Translations under genes and position numbers: made by a program | From: Escherichia coli | GTDB lineage: Bacteria; Pseudomonadota; Gammaproteobacteria; Enterobacterales; Enterobacteriaceae | Direction: 5' to 3' (one strand) | NCBI RefSeq assembly: GCF_013122565.1 | Contig: NZ_CP053258.1 | Length of the DNA stretch: 64,000 nt | Shown here: positions 11,385 through 55,395 of the stretch, one piece after another | Layout of the letters: each line of letters opens with the position of its first letter | How positions within the stretch are numbered: the stretch's first letter is position 1 | Notes under the pieces: generated by a model | Seen by the model: the letters and a program-made list of their open reading frames with translations, nothing else | The model's database searches: none | What the model was told of the DNA's origin: nothing

Positions 11385-11472
11385 GGTGAGGTGTCCGAGT
11401 GGCTGAAGGAGCACGCCTGGAAAGTGTGTATACGGCAACGTATCGGGGGTTCGAATCCCCCCCTCACCGCCA
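11385..11472 (+). tRNA. serW: tRNA-Ser (anticodon GGA), 88 nt
   Basis: GGTGAGGTGTCCGAGTGGCTGAAGGAGCACGCCTGGAAAGTGTGTATACGGCAACGTATCGGGGGTTCGAATCCCCCCCTCACCGCCA; long variable arm, T-loop GGTTCGAATCC, 3' CCA encoded. Confidence 0.95.
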
Positions 11473-11480
11473 TATTTAAA

Positions 11481-11513
11481 GAAGAGCTCGTACGAAAGTA
11501 CGAGCTTTTTTTC
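11481..11513 (+). terminator. serW rho-independent terminator
   Basis: Hairpin agctcgtac-gaaa-gtacgagct followed by ttttttt. Confidence 0.8.
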
Positions 11514-11630: not shown

Positions 11631-11696
11631 AATCCCCCCCTCACCGCCATATTTAAAGAAGAACTCGTACGAAAGTACGGGCTTTTTTTTCGCATT
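11631..11696 (+). repeat. Degenerate direct duplicate of serW 3' end plus terminator (copy of 11453-11518)
   Basis: aatccccccctcaccgccatatttaaagaagaactcgtacgaaagtacgggctttttttt differs from the tRNA 3' end/terminator at only a few positions. Confidence 0.85.
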
Positions 11697-11841
11697 TTAT
11701 CTGCCTGTACGGCAGTGAATATGGTGGGCGGGTGGAGTATGTTACCAGTGAATTTCTAAGCTGCCAGTACGGCAGTGAACGTTCGCTGCAACCGCTAGCC
11801 AAGACGGTAGGTTTTTCTAAGCTGCCTGTACGGCAGTGAAC
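11693..11841 (-). CRISPR. Orphan type I-F CRISPR mini-array: 3 repeats (28 bp), 2 spacers (32-33 bp), no adjacent cas genes
   Basis: Minus-strand repeats GTTCACTGCCGTACAGGCAGCTTAGAAA at 11814-11841 (exact), 11753-11780 (1 mismatch), 11693-11720 (degenerate); spacers 11721-11752 and 11781-11813. Confidence 0.9.
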
Positions 11842-15301: not shown

Positions 15302-17248
15302 TTACTCTCGTGCCAGAGCATCTACTGGATCCAGTCGTGCCGCATTTCGTGCGGGTAACCAGCCAAATAAAATCCCGGTGACCGTCGAGCAGAGAAACGC
15401 CAGCAGCAGCGCCAACGGTGAAAAACCAATCTCCCAGCCGGGTAAGAAAAGCTGTAAGGTGAAAGCAATTAACAGTGACAGTGTTATTCCCAACGCGCCA
15501 CCGACCAGGCAAACCAGTACGGCTTCGATCAGGAACTGTTGCAAAACATCGCTTGCTCGCGCACCTACAGCCATGCGAATGCCAATTTCCCGCGTCCGCT
15601 CGGTCACTGACACCAGCATAATATTCATTACACCAATACCGCCCACCACCAGCGAAATCACCGCCACCAGCGTCAGAAACAGTTGTAAAGTACGTGTGGT
15701 CTTTTCAACAGTTTTCAAGACGCCGTCCATGTTCCAGGTAAAGAAATCCTTCTTACCGTGGCGCAGTGAAAGTAAACGCGTGAGTTGCTGTTCCGCCTCG
15801 GCGCTGTCAAATCCTTCTTTTACCCTGACAGTAATGGAGTTAAGCCACGACTGGCCCATAACTCGCCCGGACATCGTGCTGTAAGGTAGCCAGACACGCA
15901 GCACTTTACTGCTACCAAACATCGACTGTTTTTCTTCCGCCACACCAATGACTCTGGCGGGCATGTTTCCGACCAGAATCACCTCGCCAACCACATCGGC
16001 TTTATGGGGGAAAAGCTGGCGGCGAGTATTACTGTCGAGAACCACGACCTGCGCACGACCGTTCAGCTGCTCCTGATTAAAGGTGTTCCCTTCACTGAAG
16101 GTCATGCCATAGACATTAAAATAATCGCCGCTCACGCCATTGGCACTGGCAGCAACATCAACATTGTTATAACGCAGGCGCAGGTTTTGCGAGACGGCAG
16201 GTGTGGCTGAAGCGACCCACGGTTGTTTTTGGATGGCGATTAAGTCATCGTACTTCAGCGCCTGCTGATATTGCGGATCGTCATCGCCAAAATCTTTCCC
16301 GGGATAGACATCAATAGTATTCGTACCAATAGAACGAATATCCGCCAGCACCATTTGTTTGGCGGCGTCGCCCACCACGACAATGGAAACCACCGACGCA
16401 ATACCGATTATAATCCCCAGCATGGTCAGTAAAGTACGCATTTTATTCGCTGCCAGCGCCCGCCATGCCATCGTCAGCGCCTCATTAAAACCGCTGACAA
16501 ACTGCCGCCAGCCAGACGCCGTGTTGACAACAGGTTCCGTCCCGCCAGCAACATTCACTTGTTCAATGGCGGGAGGATTGCGCACAATTTCTCCGTCGCG
16601 AATTTCGATCACCCGCTCGGCCTGAGCAGCGACCTGCGGATCGTGGGTGACGATAATCACCGTATGCCCGCGATCACGCAGCTGATGCAGGATCGCCATC
16701 ACCTCTTCGCCAGAATGGCTGTCCAGTGCGCCGGTCGGTTCATCGGCAAGAATTACCTGACCGCCGTTCATCAATGCCCGCGCGATGCTGACGCGCTGTT
16801 GCTGACCACCCGAAAGCTGTGCCGGATAATACTCTGTACGGTCTTCCAGCCCCAGTCGTTGCAGCAACTCCTGGGCGCGAAGCAGCCGCTGTTTCCGCTC
16901 AAGACCAGCATAGACGGCAGGTACTTCAACGTTCTGCTCGGCGGTTAAATGTGAAAGCAAATGGTAACGCTGGAAAATAAAGCCGAAATGCTCGCGGCGC
17001 AGTTGTGCCAGCTCATCGGCGTCCAGCGTGGCAACATCCTGACCGGCTACGCGATAGGTGCCGCTGGTGGCCTTATCCAGGCAGCCGAGAATATTCATCA
17101 GGGTCGATTTACCGGAACCCGAAGCGCCGACAATCGCTACCATCTCACCGGCATAAATATCGAGGGTGATGCCCTTCAGCACCTCAACCTGCTCATCACC
17201 GGCAGGATAGCTGCGACGAATATCCTTTAATTCGAGCAAGGGTGTCAT
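15302..17248 (-). CDS. macB: Macrolide export ABC transporter MacB (648 aa)
   Basis: N-terminal ABC domain ([24 protein letters not shown]) plus C-terminal FtsX-like permease; length matches MacB. Confidence 0.93.
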
Positions 17249-18360
17249 TGCGCAGCTCCTGGTTTGGCCTCACCAATCACCACTTCATCGCCCGCTTCCA
17301 GCCCTTTGACAATCTCAACATCGGTATCGTTACGTGCGCCAATCGTCACTTCACGCTCGCGTGTTTCACCATTACGCAACAATTTGACTTTATAACGATT
17401 ATCGCCAACCGGATCGCCTAACGCCGACAGAGGGATCGTCAGCACATTTTTCACATCGGTGAGCTGAATATGCACTTGCGCAGTCATATCCAGCCGCAGC
17501 AAACCATTGGGGTTGGGGACTTCAAAACGGGCGTAATAGAAAATAGCGTCGTTAACCTTTTCCGGCGTCGGTAGTACATCCTTGATTTGCCCCTCGTAGC
17601 GCGTCAGTGGATCGCCAAGTACCGTAAACCAGGCTTTTTGCCCCGGCTTCAGGTGGATTACATCTGCTTCAGAAACCTGCGCTTTTACCAGCATGGTGCT
17701 CATATCTGCCAGCGTCAGAATGTTCGGTGCTTGTTGTGCGGCAATCACCGTCTGGCCTTGCAGAGTGGTGATTTGCGTGACTTCCCCGGCCATCGGGGCA
17801 ACGATGCGAGTGTAATCGAGATTGGTTTTAGCCGTATCGAGAGAAGCCTGATTGCGCTTGATTTGCGCGTCAATGGTGCCAATTTGCGCCTGTTTCACAG
17901 CCATCTCCGTCGCGGCGGTGTCGAGATCCTGCTGTGAAACCGCCTGCGTTTGTGCAAGACGTTGCTGACGGGAATATGTCACCCGCGCCAGTTTCAGCTC
18001 CGCTTCCGCCTGCTGCCGCTGCGCGCGTAGCTCCATCAGCGTTGCTTCCACCTCCTTGATCTGGTTTTCAGCCTGTTCAGGATCAATAACCCCTAAAAGC
18101 TGGTCTTTTTTAACTTTATCGCCAATCGCCACCGACAGCGTTTTCAACTGACCGCTGACCTGCGCGCCCACGTCAACCTTACGCAGCGCGTCCAGCTTTC
18201 CGGTCGCCAGCACGCTTTGCTGTAAATCACCGGGGCGCACAATCAGCGTCTGATAAGTCGGAACGGGTGCGTTAAGAATTCTCCATAACGTAATCAGTCC
18301 GGCGATGACTATCACCAGCGCAATAACGTAACGCTTCTTCACGGTTTTCCGCTTTTTCAT
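17245..18360 (-). CDS. macA: Macrolide efflux periplasmic adaptor MacA (371 aa)
   Basis: ORF 17245..18387; [18 protein letters not shown] from ATG at 18358-18360; ATGA overlap with macB start. Confidence 0.92.
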
Positions 18361-18474
18361 AAATATTCTGAATACTCCATATGCCAATCCGGGTCATTAA
18401 CTTCAACGAAATATCAACAAAACCCTAAAATTTACGTTAGTAATCACACTATTGATGTTTGGTTAAGATACGCA

Positions 18475-19467
18475 ATGATGAAATCGACGTCATGTACAAC
18501 CATTGATTTCATGAATATGTCGCAGCTAACTGAACGGACCTTTACGCCATCTGAATCTCGCAGCAGCCTGTCACTTTTTCTTAGTCTGGCACGTGGACAG
18601 TGTCGGCCGGGTAAATTCTGGCATCGCCGTAGTTTTCGCCAGAAATTTTTGCTGCGCTCGTTGATTATGCCGCGTTTAAGCGTTGAGTGGATGAACGAAC
18701 TTTCACACTGGCCTAATCTCAATGTGTTGTTAACGCGCCAGCCGCGACTGCCTGTACGTCTGCATCGCCCTTACCTTGCGGCGAATCTTAGCCGTAAGCA
18801 ATTGCTGGAGGCGTTACGTTACCATTATGCGTTACTCCGCGGGTGTATGTCGGCGGAAGAATTCAGCTTATATTTGAATACCCCCGGGCTGCAACTGGTG
18901 AAGCTGGAAGGCAAAAACGGCGAGCAGTTCACGCTTGAGCTGACCATGATGATCTCAATGGATAAAGAAGGTGACAGCACAATCCTGTTCCGCAACAGCG
19001 AAGGTATTCCTCTGGCAGAGATCACGTTTACCCTGTGTGAATATCAGGGGAAAAGAACGATGTTTATTGGCGGACTGCAAGGCGCAAAATGGGAAATCCC
19101 ACATCAGGAAATCCAGAATGCGACGAAAGCCTGCCACGGGCTATTTCCCAAACGCCTCGTGATGGAAGCGGCCTGTCTGTTTGCCCAACGTTTGCAGGTA
19201 GAGCAGATTATTGCCGTCAGCAATGAAACGCATATTTACCGCAGCCTGCGTTATCGCGATAAAGAAGGCAAGATCCATGCCGATTACAACGCTTTCTGGG
19301 AATCGGTTGGCGGCGTATGTGATGCTGAACGCCATTACCGCCTTCCAGCACAGATAGCACGAAAAGAGATTGCCGAAATCGCCAGTAAAAAACGGGCTGA
19401 ATACCGTCGGCGCTATGAGATGCTCGACGCTATTCAGCCACAAATGGCCACGATGTTTCGCGGTTAA
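18475..19467 (+). CDS. ybjX: VirK/YbjX family protein (330 aa)
   Basis: ORF track protein, divergent from macA as in K-12; start codon not independently verified. Confidence 0.8.
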   Translation: MMKSTSCTTIDFMNMSQLTERTFTPSESRSSLSLFLSLARGQCRPGKFWHRRSFRQKFLLRSLIMPRLSVEWMNELSHWPNLNVLLTRQPRLPVRLHRPYLAANLSRKQLLEALRYHYALLRGCMSAEEFSLYLNTPGLQLVKLEGKNGEQFTLELTMMISMDKEGDSTILFRNSEGIPLAEITFTLCEYQGKRTMFIGGLQGAKWEIPHQEIQNATKACHGLFPKRLVMEAACLFAQRLQVEQIIAVSNETHIYRSLRYRDKEGKIHADYNAFWESVGGVCDAERHYRLPAQIARKEIAEIASKKRAEYRRRYEMLDAIQPQMATMFRG

Positions 19468-21122
19468 TCCGCGCGACCGCGCGCCAGCCACAGCACGCGT
19501 GAGAACATTTTTTTCAGCAGCGTCGGTACGGAGTCCACACCACGACGTCCGGCCTCCATTGCCACTTCAATGGCAAGATCGGGTTTGGAAGAGCGATGGA
19601 TCGCTTTCGAGATAATTTTGCGCAGATTCATCGGTACATTTTCCGGGATTTGCGCCACGCGGTGGAACACATCGGAAAATCCCTGGCGATACATAAAATG
19701 TTCCATATCCAGCGCCGGTAACGCCGTTAAATGTTCTCGTTCGGCTTCCCGATCATTATTCAACAGGCTGCGTACCGTAGCGGCATATTTCTTCCCTGCT
19801 TCATCGCCATCGACCAGTACATGCCATTCAATCCCCATTCGCCGGGCAAATTTAACCAGTGGCTTTAGCCCGGACTGGGCAAACTCAATGACCTTGATCC
19901 CTTCGGCATCAAAATGATGTCCGCACTGACGCGCCAGTTCATTTATAACCCAGGTTTCCGTTTCCCCTTCCACCAGCAACCAGCAGCGAGCAAACAGCGA
20001 TGACGGACGATTAAAACGAATGTGAAAAGAGATGCGGCGGCTGTCTTCGGTGCTCAAGCCACTTGGCCCCAGACGCCAGGCGGCAACACGAGAAGATTCA
20101 CGCACCAGGCGGCAAACATGTTCCACTGGAGTTAACGAAAGCAGCTCGCCAGAGTTGGTGGTAGCAATACGTTGTAAAGGCAAAAGATTCAACAGATGCC
20201 AGGCAACTGAAAGCATAATGGGGTGTAAACGCGTTTCTGGATCTTCGATCAGCAACAATGGACGGGCGTCTTTATCCAGTCGCAATGTGCCTTTTGCCTG
20301 CAATAAAGTAGCAAACAGGCCGAGCAAAATAACCCGATACGAGCGCCCTCCAGGTCGGTCAATCATCCGGTTGATGATGTCCAGATAGCGCCAGCTTCGT
20401 TGCTCATTGCTGGCCCGCCGCCGCATTAAACGATATCGCGCCTGTCCAGCCCCCTGCTCAGAGAAATAATGCTCAAGCAACTGCACCATTGCGGAAAGTC
20501 CCTGACGAATCTGTCCATCAGAGAGATTTTGCGGATGTGAGGACAACTCACGGGCGAGGAAATCGAGCTGGCGCGCGGTGACTTCCACATTGGGGACATT
20601 TGGCACCGTGCCGTTACGAATACGGCGCATAAAACGGGCATCACGCAAGCGCAGCACCGGCATTAAACGCACCAGATGGCGTGCCTGATCGTTAATATCC
20701 TCAACATCAATCGGATGTCCGTCTTTATCGAGAAAACTGCGCAGTGTCATCACGCTGCCGTCTTCCGCACTCTCCCCTTCCAGACGATAAAAAATACGGT
20801 GATAGCCATCGGTGCATGGCGTCCAGCACGCTTCCAGCGGTCGATAGCGGCGAACCCGATGTCGGCCTGGCAGCGATTCGCGGAAGGTCAAAATAATATG
20901 CAGATGATGTTCCCGACCGTTGATATCTCCCGGCGGGAACCAGAAATCGTCGCGCTCAAAATGGTAGAGATCTGATTCTGGCGATAGCAGCAGGGTTAAG
21001 GCGTCCAGCAAGCTGGATTTACCCCACGCGTTCTCCCCAATCAGGACGTTGTTTTGTTCCAGCATCAACGACAAACGGTTGATACCGCGAAAACCCACAA
21101 TTTCAACGCGCTCAAGAATCAT
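19464..21122 (-). CDS. ybjD: OLD-family ATP-dependent endonuclease YbjD (552 aa)
   Basis: MILERVEIVGFRGINRLSLMLEQNNVLIGENAWGKSSLLDALTLLL (ABC-ATPase Walker A) with C-terminal Toprim-like region; 4-nt convergent overlap with ybjX. Confidence 0.88.
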   Translation of the reverse strand: MILERVEIVGFRGINRLSLMLEQNNVLIGENAWGKSSLLDALTLLLSPESDLYHFERDDFWFPPGDINGREHHLHIILTFRESLPGRHRVRRYRPLEACWTPCTDGYHRIFYRLEGESAEDGSVMTLRSFLDKDGHPIDVEDINDQARHLVRLMPVLRLRDARFMRRIRNGTVPNVPNVEVTARQLDFLARELSSHPQNLSDGQIRQGLSAMVQLLEHYFSEQGAGQARYRLMRRRASNEQRSWRYLDIINRMIDRPGGRSYRVILLGLFATLLQAKGTLRLDKDARPLLLIEDPETRLHPIMLSVAWHLLNLLPLQRIATTNSGELLSLTPVEHVCRLVRESSRVAAWRLGPSGLSTEDSRRISFHIRFNRPSSLFARCWLLVEGETETWVINELARQCGHHFDAEGIKVIEFAQSGLKPLVKFARRMGIEWHVLVDGDEAGKKYAATVRSLLNNDREAEREHLTALPALDMEHFMYRQGFSDVFHRVAQIPENVPMNLRKIISKAIHRSSKPDLAIEVAMEAGRRGVDSVPTLLKKMFSRVLWLARGRAD

Positions 21123-21547
21123 ATCCCCTCCAGAAATATGTGACTTATCCTTTACGCTGGCAGTATAACGGGAAAGGCCTTGCTAATACGTGATGACATC
21201 ACATTTAAGCATGGCAAATGTCTGAAAAATGAGCGAATAATCGCGTTATACTCCCTCTTGCTGATAAGTCTGCAAAAACAACAAAATCAAATAATTAGCA
21301 TGATAAATTATTTTTTATTACGCCTAAAGGATTAAATCTTTTGCTTGCACTACACTGTCAATCAGACAAATGACTATATGGGGCAACCCGCTGTTGCCCT
21401 AAATCAAATTTACTGGATTTATTTATCTGGTGAATGGCTCACCTTCGTTTTTAAAATAGCCGCGCATTATTTCCGTCGTCACTTATTTACGACGACCCTA
21501 TATAACGACCATATTTTTCACAGGGTCAATTTTTAATTGAGGTGGAT

Positions 21548-22243
21548 ATGTTCAGAAAATTAGCAGCTGAATGTTTTGGTACTTTCTGGCTTGTTTTTGG
21601 TGGCTGTGGTAGTGCTATTCTGGCCGCAGGCTTCCCGGAATTAGGCATCGGTTTTGCCGGCGTGGCGCTGGCATTCGGTTTGACCGTTCTGACGATGGCC
21701 TTTGCTGTTGGTCACATTTCTGGTGGTCATTTTAACCCGGCGGTCACTATTGGTTTATGGGCTGGCGGACGTTTTCCGGCAAAAGAAGTCGTTGGCTACG
21801 TAATTGCCCAAGTTGTCGGCGGTATTGTTGCAGCGGCGCTGCTGTATTTAATTGCCAGTGGTAAAACGGGTTTTGACGCGGCAGCCAGCGGTTTTGCTTC
21901 TAACGGTTATGGCGAGCATTCACCAGGCGGTTATTCCATGCTTTCCGCGCTGGTAGTTGAACTGGTATTGAGTGCAGGTTTCCTGTTGGTGATCCACGGC
22001 GCAACCGACAAATTCGCTCCGGCAGGTTTTGCGCCGATCGCGATTGGTCTGGCCTTAACCCTGATTCACTTAATCAGTATTCCGGTGACTAACACTTCTG
22101 TTAACCCGGCGCGCAGCACCGCGGTTGCCATCTTCCAGGGCGGCTGGGCATTAGAACAACTGTGGTTCTTCTGGGTGGTGCCAATTGTCGGCGGCATTAT
22201 CGGTGGTCTGATTTACCGGACTCTACTGGAAAAGCGTAATTAA
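21548..22243 (+). CDS. aqpZ: Aquaporin Z (231 aa)
   Basis: ORF 21542..22243; [23 protein letters not shown] from ATG at 21548; two NPA motifs (HFNPAVT, VNPARS). Confidence 0.95.
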
Positions 22244-22329
22244 TTAGTATTGGCATTTTATCTGCCCTGGTTATTTTATCTTCGACGTTACAAACCGCAC
22301 GGGTGTTGGTGGCGTCAAAATCGCTGAAG

Positions 22330-22525
22330 CGTTCCCCGAAGGCCGGGGCAGCCCACATGGATGTGGGCTGAGGGCGCGTCTTACAGGGACGTTACCTCGC
22401 GCCCGACCCGGTAGCCGAAGGGGATAAGCTGAAGGTACCGCGCAGCGGCGATTTTGTTCGCCAGAGCCCGGGGGTGCAGGGGGCGGCGGCGACTGGCCGC
22501 CCCCTGCGCGCTCCCTGCGCCAGTG
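22330..22525. other. GC-rich hairpin-dense intergenic element between aqpZ and lysO (function unknown)
   Basis: Perfect palindrome gcccacat-gg-atgtgggc (22351-22368); 12-bp stem hairpin gcagggggcggc-ggcgactg-gccgccccctgc (22476-22507); further gggcgcg...cgcgccc pairings. Confidence 0.5.
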
Positions 22526-22701
22526 GCTTTATATGGCATTGCACATGAAAGGAGCGCAACAATGCTAAACGCTCATATAGAATTAAAAATCCCCCTCTGA
22601 TGCATAACATTTCCTTTTAATTGCAACTTTACTCGTCCTTCCGCTTTCAGTAGTGTGTCATCGCGCATTTCGACTTCTTTCTTTGCAAGGACTGGGTTTT
22701 C

Positions 22702-23601
22702 ATGTTTTCTGGGCTGTTAATCATTTTGGTTCCCCTGATTGTGGGTTACCTCATTCCTCTTCGCCAAAAAGCTGCATTAAGAGTTATTAATCAGCTATTA
22801 AGCTGGATGGTTTACCTCATTCTCTTTTTTATGGGTATCAGTCTGGCGTTTCTCGATAACCTCGCCAGTAACCTGTTGGCGATTCTGCATTATTCTGCCG
22901 TCAGTATTACCGTTATTTTACTGTGTAATATTGCCGCCCTGATGTGGCTGGAGCGCGGTCTGCCGTGGCGCAATCACCATCAGCAAGAAAAACTCCCATC
23001 GCGTATTGCGATGGCACTGGAGTCGCTAAAACTGTGCGGCGTAGTAGTGATTGGTTTTGCCATTGGTCTGAGTGGACTGGCTTTCTTACAACACGCGACC
23101 GAAGCCAGTGAATACACCTTAATTCTGCTACTTTTCCTCGTCGGTATTCAGTTGCGCAATAATGGCATGACCTTAAAGCAGATTGTCCTTAATCGCCGGG
23201 GAATGATTGTCGCCGTGGTGGTGGTTGTCAGTTCATTAATTGGTGGTTTAATTAACGCCTTTATTCTTGATCTCCCCATCAATACCGCGCTGGCAATGGC
23301 CTCCGGTTTCGGCTGGTATTCTCTTTCCGGTATTTTATTGACCGAATCTTTTGGTCCGGTAATCGGGAGCGCGGCGTTTTTTAATGATCTGGCCCGTGAA
23401 CTGATTGCTATTATGTTGATCCCTGGGCTGATTCGCCGCAGCCGCTCTACTGCACTGGGCTTATGCGGTGCCACATCAATGGATTTCACCCTGCCCGTTC
23501 TTCAACGTACTGGCGGACTGGATATGGTCCCGGCGGCAATTGTTCACGGTTTTATTCTTAGCCTGTTAGTGCCGATCCTCATCGCCTTTTTCTCTGCATA
23601 A
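22702..23601 (+). CDS. lysO: Lysine exporter LysO/YbjE (299 aa)
   Basis: MFSGLLIILVPLIVGYLIPLRQKAALRVINQLLSWMVYLILFFMGISLAF; multi-pass membrane protein. Confidence 0.9.
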   Translation: MFSGLLIILVPLIVGYLIPLRQKAALRVINQLLSWMVYLILFFMGISLAFLDNLASNLLAILHYSAVSITVILLCNIAALMWLERGLPWRNHHQQEKLPSRIAMALESLKLCGVVVIGFAIGLSGLAFLQHATEASEYTLILLLFLVGIQLRNNGMTLKQIVLNRRGMIVAVVVVVSSLIGGLINAFILDLPINTALAMASGFGWYSLSGILLTESFGPVIGSAAFFNDLARELIAIMLIPGLIRRSRSTALGLCGATSMDFTLPVLQRTGGLDMVPAAIVHGFILSLLVPILIAFFSA

Positions 23602-23744
23602 TACCTCTCTGGCGGTAGATCCCTGCCGCCAAAATTGCGCTAAATCAATCTCCCTTAAAGTTGCATGAAAAATCCCTTTTATCCCCGCGTTAAGCGTCTT
23701 AACCTTAAACATGTATATTAAATATAACTTTAAAAGGTGTGATC

Positions 23745-55316: not shown

Positions 55317-55395
55317 GCCACTGCTTTTCTTTGATGTCCCCATTTTGTGGAGCCCATCAACCCCGCCATTTCGGTTCAAGGTTGGTGGGTTTTTT
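55317..55395 (+). ncRNA. rybB: RybB small RNA (sigmaE-dependent, Hfq-binding), 79 nt
   Basis: gccactgcttttctttgatgtccccattttgtggagcccatcaaccccgccatttcggttcaaggttggtgggtttttt matches the RybB sequence as I recall it, including terminator hairpin and U-tract. Confidence 0.9.

Follow-up and report, generated by a model that had tools for sequence, protein, structure and literature searches.

Nucleases of the OLD family are known from anti-phage systems such as P2 Old and Gabija, and the ybjD gene of Escherichia coli raises the question of what such an enzyme does in the core chromosome. YbjD was the seed of the 2019 OLD classification, in which it belongs to Class 1 (PMC6755086), and a 2026 micropublication proposed the name oldB for its gene (PMC13261556), so that the identification of ybjD as an OLD homologue is already known and nothing new. 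In published experiments, the Keio deletion of ybjD left the sensitivity to BASEL phages unchanged, and an anti-phage effect was seen only upon induced expression, where Bas18 and Bas20 were restricted at an inducer level that was not itself toxic (PMC13261556). The induced phenotypes required neither the Toprim domain nor its acidic residues, and the K35A variant kept the phenotype and was more toxic (PMC13261556). Induction also had toxic effects; it was RecBC-independent, and YbjD was non-toxic in a recBC(ts) background (PMC13261556). We analysed the gene within a window of 64,000 nucleotides (the whole stretch of DNA under study). With high confidence in the explanation as a whole, we propose that ybjD/oldB is a core gene for a stand-alone Class 1 OLD protein with an ABC-type ATPase and a two-metal Toprim nuclease, whose activity would be restrained by ATP. 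The only new point is that ybjD evolves as a housekeeping gene, unlike typical mobile anti-phage cargo.

The ybjD gene and its expression signals

An intact, ATG-started open reading frame of 552 codons plus stop occupies positions 19464-21122 on the minus strand (open reading frame list and translation), exactly the coordinates given in an earlier note on this DNA. RefSeq labels the gene ybjD, 'ATP-dependent endonuclease', and its product is 100% identical to a protein cluster of 5302 members. The GC content at the gene is native (0.52-0.53). The gene and its signals are:

19464..21122, minus strand: ybjD (proposed oldB) coding sequence, 552 aa plus stop (open reading frame list, translation; RefSeq E. 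coli annotation)
21125..21131, minus strand: Shine-Dalgarno sequence GGAGGGG (sequence; GGAGG conserved in alignment A3)
21162..21167, minus strand: -10-like hexamer TATACT, about 40 nt upstream of the ybjD start codon (footprint)
19464..19467, no strand assigned: TTAA, where the stop codons of the convergent genes ybjD and ybjX overlap (sequence)

Upstream of ybjD, a footprint over 10 enterobacterial genera (alignment A3) revealed conservation of only the TATACT hexamer and the Shine-Dalgarno sequence, and neither an SOS box nor another regulatory operator was conserved there. Because a sigma-70 consensus scan of the upstream intergenic region found no full promoter, TATACT is a candidate promoter element by the footprint only. 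The gene may be transcribed alone, from a weak promoter of its own. Its transcript is present in the wild type by RT-qPCR (PMC13261556), and the ybjD-ybjX pair appears as a convergent excludon in an RNA-seq list (PMC12288877).

Domain architecture and conserved residues

YbjD is a member of the OLD family by architecture, fold and motifs. The N-terminal ABC-type ATPase and C-terminal Toprim region put forward in the earlier note were both recovered, by Pfam and by a motif alignment of 33 relatives with 28-53% identity (alignment A2). DUF2813 covers residues 1-375 (E 2e-160), AAA_15 and AAA_21 match the N-terminus, and OLD-like_TOPRIM covers residues 376-440 (E 4e-16). The domain search that the note had set as its own refuting test thus detected Toprim/OLD homology, and the GajA and Old profiles of PADLOC also matched. 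The parts of the protein map as follows:

19998..21122, minus strand: N-terminal ABC-type ATPase region, residues 1-375 (Pfam DUF2813, AAA_15, AAA_21; AF2; Foldseek)
21015..21038, minus strand: Walker A, G29-E-N-A-W-G-K35-S36 (translation)
20220..20258, minus strand: Walker B / D-loop / H-loop block, L289-LLIEDPETRLHP-301 (alignment)
19467..19997, minus strand: Toprim nuclease domain (376 to ~470) and C-terminal helical bundle (~473-547) (Pfam, AF2)
19956..19970, minus strand: Toprim acidic motif E385-G-E387-T-E389 (alignment A2)
19803..19811, minus strand: Toprim D438-G-D440 (DxD) metal-binding motif (33/33 in A2)
19584..19586, minus strand: invariant K513 in the C-terminal helical region (K513 and P514 33/33)

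The Walker A has the GxxxxGK[ST] form of OLD-family ATPases (G29-ENAWGKS-36), with G29, E30 and G34 invariant in the 33-member family alignment and K35 kept in 30/33. Residues 289-LLLIEDPETRLHP-301 follow the family order of a Walker B and then a PE..LHP block, where E293 is found in 29 of the 33 sequences and H300 and P301 in all of them. The C-terminal Toprim carries the conserved Glu and the DxD of the family, and E385, G386, E387 and E389 are present in 33/33 sequences of alignment A2. Thus, the residues of the nuclease site do not vary even in relatives as distant as 28% identity, while position 294, the canonical site of the ABC catalytic Glu, varies among the 33 relatives (D in 20, E in 8, N in 3, A in 1 and R in 1). 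In YbjD itself, Walker A, H300/P301, E385/E387/E389, D438/D440, E474 and K513 are all intact. Judging from the alignment, K513 is the likely counterpart of the conserved catalytic lysine of Class 2 OLD nucleases; in Bp OLD, the conserved lysine is required for full nuclease activity (PMC6755086).

The AF2 monomer model of YbjD (pLDDT 84.5, pTM 0.83) exceeds a pLDDT of 90 across most of the Toprim domain and the C-terminal bundle, and its low-confidence loops (162-176 and 222-244) lie within a four-helix insertion in the ATPase. On this model, the helical insertion (~160-280) may correspond to the domain through which solved OLD proteins dimerise, and it would probably serve dimerisation in YbjD. 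The best PDB matches by Foldseek were GajA (E 1e-18), Thermus OLD 6p74 (E 2e-16) and the retron-Eco8 effector (E 1e-13), each with probability 1.00, which bears out the OLD-type architecture at the level of fold. The matches to the ATPase region were GajA and Ts OLD, followed by SMC/Rad50 heads. Among PADLOC profiles, GajA (PDLC00094) scored 267 bits against 84 bits for Old, and the AriA profile covered only the first 51 residues; NCBIfam gave a weak match to the retron-Eco8 effector.

Genomic context and class assignment

Of 5426 complete E. coli genomes, 5424 carry one full-length copy of the gene, so its description as core genome is correct. It sits between macAB-ybjX and aqpZ-lysO-hcp-hcr, and its neighbours thus encode the MacAB efflux pump, YbjX (DUF535), an aquaporin, LysO and Hcp/Hcr. 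Positions 17000-24000 of the window are covered at 80% or more in 5334/5426 genomes, and the flanks of ybjD are therefore core. The region had also been called rich in accessory insertions. Variable segments do exist in the window (~11.4-11.9 kb, 33.0-35.5 kb and 40.3-43.4 kb), but they lie 8-22 kb from ybjD, and this framing was overstated because the immediate neighbourhood is core.

Synteny was surveyed among the 80 closest loci listed, all from Enterobacterales, and the survey was kept apart from the reading of distant contexts. From Escherichia to Serratia, ybjD retains its place between lysO/hcp and macAB, while ybjX and aqpZ are present in some loci and missing in others, and among these 80 loci no gene was found inserted between ybjD and its mapped neighbours. 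Hence the conserved chromosomal copy that had been suspected belongs to the core genome of Enterobacterales, where it is inherited vertically in a single copy. Ten distant DUF2813 homologues are all solo and stand amid housekeeping genes (adjoining dxs, cysS/nrdAB, lon/fabA and lpxC), not in defence islands. A phage collection of about 50,000 records held no close YbjD relative. High-identity matches labelled as plasmids were considered as mobile copies and set aside, being chromosome-sized or ybjX-linked fragments that are most likely mislabelled chromosomal records. Relatives of 1100-1900 aa, considered as helicase fusions or eukaryotic proteins, proved to be Anaerobiospirillum proteins with insertions or extensions that carry no Pfam domain.

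No GajB-like helicase was found among the open reading frames and annotation up to 10 kb on each side of ybjD, and no reverse transcriptase among its annotated neighbours. Rfam detected no retron RNA family in the window, and no flanking protein matched a PADLOC profile. The ATPase and Toprim parts are both in one 552-aa reading frame, not in two genes as in PARIS. The convergent ybjX, with its 4-nt overlap, was weighed as a functional partner and rejected, since several taxa with ybjD lack it (Klebsiella, Raoultella, Superficieibacter and others) and since it evolves much faster (dN/dS 0.08-0.25). As ybjD stands beside neither a helicase nor a reverse transcriptase nor any other defence partner, it is a Class 1 (solo) OLD gene, and the earlier view that it has no partner holds. 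The genomic marks of a defence gene (variable presence, a defence island, a mobile element) are absent from ybjD.

Among characterised relatives, Ts OLD (Thermus scotoductus, 6p74, Class 1) shares with YbjD the solo gene, the ABC ATPase with an inserted helical domain and the C-terminal Toprim. The two are similar in length (528 vs 552 aa) and fold (Foldseek E 2e-16) and show a sequence match spanning Walker B to Toprim, although identity is only ~16%. Exonuclease, nicking and ATPase activities have been measured for Ts OLD, whereas their counterparts in YbjD are predicted only, and the YbjD clade mostly has Asp rather than Glu after Walker B. The archetypal Class 1 protein, P2 Old, is likewise encoded by a single gene and has its domains in the same order; tblastn aligned it over residues 252-440 at 27.8% identity. 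However, the P2 gene is carried as prophage cargo and kills recBC cells, and its product cleaves the anticodon arms of tRNAs (PMC12445682, PMC13261556), whereas ybjD is chromosomal core and non-toxic in recBC(ts), with a Toprim-independent over-expression phenotype (PMC13261556). Vc OLD (Vibrio cholerae), a Class 1 DNA nickase inhibited by phage Oad1, resembles YbjD as a solo bacterial OLD that is RecBCD-independent, but it is strain-variable and its defence requires the ATP-binding residues (PMC12392090), while YbjD K35A keeps its phenotype (PMC13261556) and ybjD is core.

GajA of Gabija (Class 2; B. cereus VD045, 8sm3) is the best structural and PADLOC match to YbjD, and its inhibition by ATP parallels the hypertoxicity of K35A. 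However, GajA requires an adjacent GajB helicase, with which it forms a 4:4 complex, and ybjD has no adjacent helicase; Class 2 proteins are also longer, as their Toprim region carries a helical insert (PMC10568477). The retron-Eco8 effector (Class 3) and PARIS AriA/AriB (Class 4) follow the same logic of ABC ATPase plus Toprim, but there is no reverse transcriptase or msr/msd RNA near ybjD, and PARIS splits the two parts that YbjD fuses. Cran1, an archaeal OLD-family ATPase involved in cell-cycle progression, behaves, like YbjD, as the product of a conserved chromosomal gene, and no defence role is apparent for it (PMC12796447). Cran1 is essential and archaeal whereas ybjD is dispensable, and the likeness is one of description.

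Selective constraint and possible roles

The gene showed dN/dS values of 0.016-0.049, as low as those of its housekeeping (metabolic and transport) neighbours or lower, and its Toprim segment (residues 376-460) was the lowest part (0.000-0.020). Against Citrobacter, Salmonella, Klebsiella and Enterobacter, dS was saturated (>1.2), so that only the ranking of those values is reliable. There is thus a tension between published phenotypes that are Toprim-independent and a nuclease site that is the most strongly conserved part of a core, syntenic gene. This suggests that the physiological role of ybjD has not yet been observed, and the native role probably needs the nuclease.

In the mechanism that we prefer, ATP binding, rather than hydrolysis, would keep YbjD in a restrained state. 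The variable position 294, mostly Asp, and the published K35A phenotype (PMC13261556) point to ATP as a regulator, and the notion of a brake is drawn from this one mutant and from the analogy with GajA of B. cereus. Loss of the restraint, or some trigger, would then release an activity that damages phage and, when excessive, the cell as well. The selected function may be cleavage of nucleic acid at the Toprim site, with DNA (nicking or exonuclease) or RNA such as tRNA as putative substrate, as for other OLD proteins.

For this native role, defence is quite possible in our view, if short of probable, and housekeeping maintenance of nucleic acids is a serious but tentative candidate. The latter would make YbjD a domesticated OLD enzyme, comparable to Cran1, that works on nucleic acid of the host, be it in DNA repair, replication surveillance or the processing of RNA, with the anti-phage effects as side effects of over-expression, and we consider this reading plausible while giving it less than even weight. 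The single-copy core gene with synteny kept across the whole order, the constraint at or below the level of metabolic and transport neighbours and strongest on the nuclease, the lack of close phage relatives among the records searched and the distant homologues outside defence islands all speak for it. So do the deletion without a phage phenotype, the Toprim-independent over-expression phenotype (PMC13261556) and the precedent of Cran1 (PMC12796447). On the other hand, ybjD is non-essential, the published work considered here reports no growth or repair phenotype, YbjD restricts Bas18 and Bas20 when induced to a degree that is not toxic (PMC13261556), no SOS or other operator is conserved upstream, and a fixed core position is compatible with defence as well. 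A broader version, that the whole YbjD/DUF2813 clade is an OLD lineage domesticated for a host function, with ATP-gated, Toprim-dependent cutting of host DNA or RNA and vertical descent across Gamma- and Betaproteobacteria, its anti-phage effects being over-expression by-products of the ATPase/dimerisation module, we regard as conceivable but rather unlikely.

Two other explanations were considered. That YbjD is an orphaned GajA (Class 2 OLD) which lost GajB, or uses an unlinked UvrD/Rep-type helicase, would fit its strongest PADLOC profiles, its top structural matches to GajA chains and a helicase-endonuclease pair labelled uvrD-ybjD on SGI1-type islands (PMC9035990). It was downgraded because no partner stands in the window, in the flanks, at the 80 closest loci listed or beside the 10 distant DUF2813 homologues. 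Moreover, 552 aa and the size of the C-terminal region fit Class 1, whose proteins are ~50 aa shorter than those of Class 2 (PMC6755086), and sequence similarity to the solved GajA is marginal (E ~1e-4), which leaves this origin improbable. Still far less credible is the view that the reading frame survives from an old mobile element as a relic that is decaying or without function, despite the absence of a deletion phenotype (PMC13261556) and of a consensus promoter, and despite shortened variants in databases (P0002 at 525 aa, and fragments). The reading frame is intact in 5424/5426 genomes at native GC, the transcript is detectable (PMC13261556), the catalytic residues are invariant in distant relatives, and the purifying selection on ybjD effectively refutes a relic.

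The preferred reading of ybjD as a solo core gene bears on classification, as it suggests that 'Class 1', being defined by context, brings together defence genes that are mobile and a lineage that is inherited vertically. If the host-function hypothesis for the DUF2813 clade were true, the name 'Class 1 OLD' would describe context only and would cover both genuine defence genes (P2 Old, Vc OLD) and a housekeeping enzyme that takes no part in defence. For annotation, the strong GajA profile matches to ybjD should not be taken to mean a Gabija system.

Structure and domains of YbjD

The earlier note had placed an OLD-family nuclease gene at 19464-21122, and the ORF list and the translation reproduced its reading frame and coordinates exactly:

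19464..21122, minus strand, ybjD, a single long frame with an ATG start (552 aa)

The translation has the N-terminus MILERVEIVGFRGINRL and carries the motifs GENAWGKS (Walker A), LLLIEDPETRLHP, LLVEGETE and VDGDEAG. A Shine-Dalgarno sequence (GGAGGGG) lies 2 nt 5' of the ATG, the stop codons of ybjD and the convergent ybjX overlap inside TTAA, and the GC content of ybjD (0.52-0.53) is the same as that of the flanking sequence.

Pfam search of YbjD identified DUF2813 at residues 1-375 (E = 2e-160), OLD-like_TOPRIM at residues 376-440 (E = 4e-16) and AAA_15, AAA_21 and AAA_29 over the first ~50-70 residues. No NCBIfam equivalog was found for YbjD, and the models of RecF, PtuA, MADS3 and the retron Eco8 effector in this collection matched it only weakly, through the P-loop. 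The PADLOC matches were to many profiles of GajA (the strongest, PDLC00094, at E = 7e-80) and to that of Old (E = 2e-24), and sequence search against the PDB was marginal (GajA, E about 1e-4; Thermus scotoductus OLD 6p74, E = 1.7e-3). The AlphaFold2 model, built from an input alignment of 33 sequences, was confident (mean pLDDT 84.5, pTM 0.83), with low confidence only in loops 162-176 and 222-244 within a helical insertion. Its best Foldseek matches in the PDB were GajA chains (1e-18), Thermus scotoductus (Ts) OLD (2e-16) and the retron-Eco8 effector (1e-13), followed by PtuA, SMC and Rad50 heads, which have only the ATPase in common with it. As Pfam, PADLOC and Foldseek all detect the claimed ABC-type ATPase and Toprim/OLD homology, OLD-family membership of YbjD stands; every membership test that could be run found its feature, namely Walker A, the Walker B/LHP block, the Toprim E and DxD residues, and the fold. 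YbjD is predicted to act, in outline, like other OLD nucleases.

The identification of this gene is not new. E. coli YbjD (b0876) was the seed for collecting 837 OLD homologues, and E. coli and Salmonella were assigned to Class 1 (Schiltz et al., 2019; PMC6755086), while a phenotype paper has proposed the name oldB (PMC13261556).

Genomic context, inheritance and selection

Megablast of positions 17000-24000 against 5426 complete E. coli genomes recovered this segment at a coverage of at least 80% in 5334 of them, with macA, ybjX, ybjD (as 'ATP-dependent endonuclease'), aqpZ and lysO annotated in the matches. The gene itself is full-length, single-copy and at least 95% identical in 5424 of the 5426 genomes, in agreement with its description as a conserved chromosomal copy. 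In the closest strain the order is K-12-like (serS ... clpA-clpS-cspD-macB-macA-ybjX-ybjD-aqpZ-lysO-hcp-hcr-poxB ... potF). The adjoining genes encode a DUF535/VirK-family protein (YbjX) and annotated aquaporin Z (AqpZ), neither of which matched a PADLOC defence model; annotation of the region around ybjD showed neither a helicase nor a reverse transcriptase nor a stand-alone Toprim gene, and Rfam detected no retron RNA in the window. The gene therefore appears to have no partner, as had been proposed. By the field's context-based definition of the classes (PMC6755086, PMC10568477), such a solo arrangement makes YbjD very probably a Class 1 OLD; its context does not fit Class 2 (no GajB), Class 3 (no reverse transcriptase or ncRNA) or Class 4 (not split).

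In a synteny sample with one genome per species, the closest 80 loci, all from Enterobacterales (66-99% protein identity), always had ybjD between (aqpZ)-lysO-hcp-hcr and (ybjX)-macA-macB. This position is kept in Escherichia, Citrobacter, Salmonella, Klebsiella, Enterobacter, Kosakonia, Buttiauxella and Cedecea, out to Serratia, and ybjD has been inherited vertically. Neither adjoining gene is therefore an obligate partner: ybjX is missing at the ybjD loci of Klebsiella, Raoultella, Superficieibacter and others, and aqpZ at those of Salmonella and others.

dN/dS by the Nei-Gojobori method against E. albertii, Citrobacter, Salmonella, Klebsiella and Enterobacter; since inter-genus dS is saturated, the order of the values can be trusted more than their size
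ybjD, whole gene: 0.016-0.049
ybjD, ATPase part: 0.021-0.054
ybjD, Toprim segment (residues 376-460): 0.000-0.020
ybjD, C-terminal helices: 0.013-0.051
macB, macA, aqpZ, lysO, hcp and hcr: 0.024-0.085
ybjX: 0.08-0.25

The convergent ybjX (18475-19467, plus strand) evolves far faster than all surrounding genes (loci L012-L088 of the comparison), and YbjX of E. coli and Citrobacter share 57% amino acid identity, against 87-95% for its neighbours.

An exhaustive phmmer search with YbjD yielded 763 cluster representatives (E <= 1e-10), including proteins of Vibrio, Motilimonas and Chitinilyticum. Anaerobiospirillum has giant DUF2813+Toprim proteins of 1100-1900 aa (P0149, P0162, P0165, P0175), whose ATPase region is interrupted by large insertions and whose C-terminus is greatly extended by sequence lacking any Pfam domain. 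The ten distant homologues examined were all solo and amid housekeeping genes (for example pgpA/dxs, a 5'-nucleotidase/hydrolase-PTS pair, lpxC-region genes, lon-fabA and cysS/nrdAB). No close relative was present in 50,697 phage records, where P2 old matched at 27.8% identity over residues 252-440, and high-identity 'plasmid' hits were to chromosome-sized records or ybjX-linked fragments. Class 1 OLD nucleases were reported by DefenseFinder in only 0.45% of genomes (PMC12392090), a figure that evidently does not count the YbjD clade, as ybjD belongs to the core genome of E. coli and is kept throughout Enterobacterales.

Activity, native role and expression

In an alignment of 33 sequences (28-53% identity), the predicted nuclease residues E385, E387, E389, D438, D440, E474 and K513 are invariant and Walker A K35 is conserved in 30 of them, while the position after Walker B, occupied by the catalytic Glu in canonical ABC ATPases, has D in 20, E in 8, N in 3, A in 1 and R in 1. 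Our preferred picture of YbjD is a solo OLD enzyme whose activity would be restrained by nucleotide binding to the ABC domain, as suggested by the hypertoxic K35A mutant, the relaxed hydrolysis residue and the analogy with ATP-inhibited GajA. The invariant residues and the near-zero dN/dS suggest that its selected function would depend on a two-metal Toprim site. As precedents, other members of the family nick DNA or act on it as exonucleases (Ts OLD, Vibrio cholerae OLD, GajA) or cleave tRNA (P2 Old, AriB).

The check suggested in the earlier note, phage sensitivity of a ybjD deletion, has already been published with a negative result: the Keio deletion left phage susceptibility unchanged, and the transcript was present in the parental strain (PMC13261556). 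Arabinose-induced YbjD lowered plating of the BASEL phages Bas18 and Bas20 and reduced the plaque size of Bas64-68; these induced anti-phage effects needed the ATPase domain but neither the Toprim domain nor its acidic residues, while K35A kept the phenotype with higher toxicity (PMC13261556). The dispensability of the Toprim domain in these assays conflicts with its being the most constrained part of YbjD here.

Restriction of some phages by induced YbjD at non-toxic levels (PMC13261556) argues for phage defence as the native role and against housekeeping in host nucleic-acid maintenance. However, defence genes are not typically core, syntenic and slowly evolving, nor missing from both phages and defence islands as ybjD is, and we hold the defence role only tentatively, at somewhat less than even confidence. 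Housekeeping is only slightly less likely; the evolutionary behaviour of ybjD resembles that of Cran1, an archaeal OLD-family ATPase reported as a non-defence protein (PMC12796447). YbjD is very unlikely to be an orphaned Gabija. Its strong GajA profile matches denote family-level homology and not a Gabija system. The name ybjD has also been transferred to true Class 2 genes, as in the 'uvrD-ybjD' pair on SGI1 islands (PMC9035990). In contrast to P2 Old, YbjD is not lethal to a recBC(ts) strain (PMC13261556).

Across ten genera, the upstream footprint conserved only a TATACT hexamer ~40 nt upstream of ybjD and the Shine-Dalgarno sequence, with no operator-like block, and a consensus promoter scan of the intergenic region gave no match, which is consistent with weak, constitutive expression. 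The ybjD-ybjX pair appears as a convergent excludon in an RNA-seq-based list (PMC12288877). Mild up-regulation of ybjD in UPEC UTI89 exposed to the cathelicidin-type peptide B22 (PMC6737244), and the location, upstream of the Edwardsiella homologue, of the top peak in ChIP-seq of EnrR, a xenogeneic nucleoid protein (PMC9023278), are possible regulatory leads for ybjD orthologues.

Variable features elsewhere in the window

The description of the region as rich in accessory insertions holds in part for the window, which has several variable features relative to SBF45, the closest reference strain, but not for the surroundings of ybjD, from which these features are 8-22 kb away:

11693-11841, minus strand, CRISPR remnant, three 28-nt repeats at a spacing of 60-61 nt, between tRNA-Ser and clpA
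32967-35588, low-GC (0.33) accessory segment between ybjQ and ybjP
33177..34277, minus strand, 366-aa pentapeptide-repeat protein, in the low-GC segment
34240..34959, minus strand, 239-aa protein, in the low-GC segment
40269-43448, minus strand, sulfatase (493 aa), PTS IIB (106 aa) and PTS EIIC-GAT (447 aa), between artJ and rlmC

The stretch 32600-36200 was found at a coverage of at least 80% in only 1124 of the 5426 complete E. coli genomes, and the 239-aa protein had no Pfam or PADLOC match. The sulfatase/PTS block is missing from SBF45. Two of the three CRISPR repeats match Rfam CRISPR-DR4, and no cas genes lie near the remnant, whose site we take to be the known position of E. coli type I-F CRISPR3/4 arrays or remnants. 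Beside it, a 59-nt direct repeat (11454-11512 and 11631-11689, 97% identical, 177 nt apart) duplicates the 3' end of tRNA-Ser(GGA) and the terminator hairpin, and resembles the attL/attR-type scar that an integrative element would leave at serW. Rfam also identified two ordinary E. coli features:

39229-39309, minus strand, REP-derived naRNA4 element
55320-55398, plus strand, RybB sRNA (104 bits)
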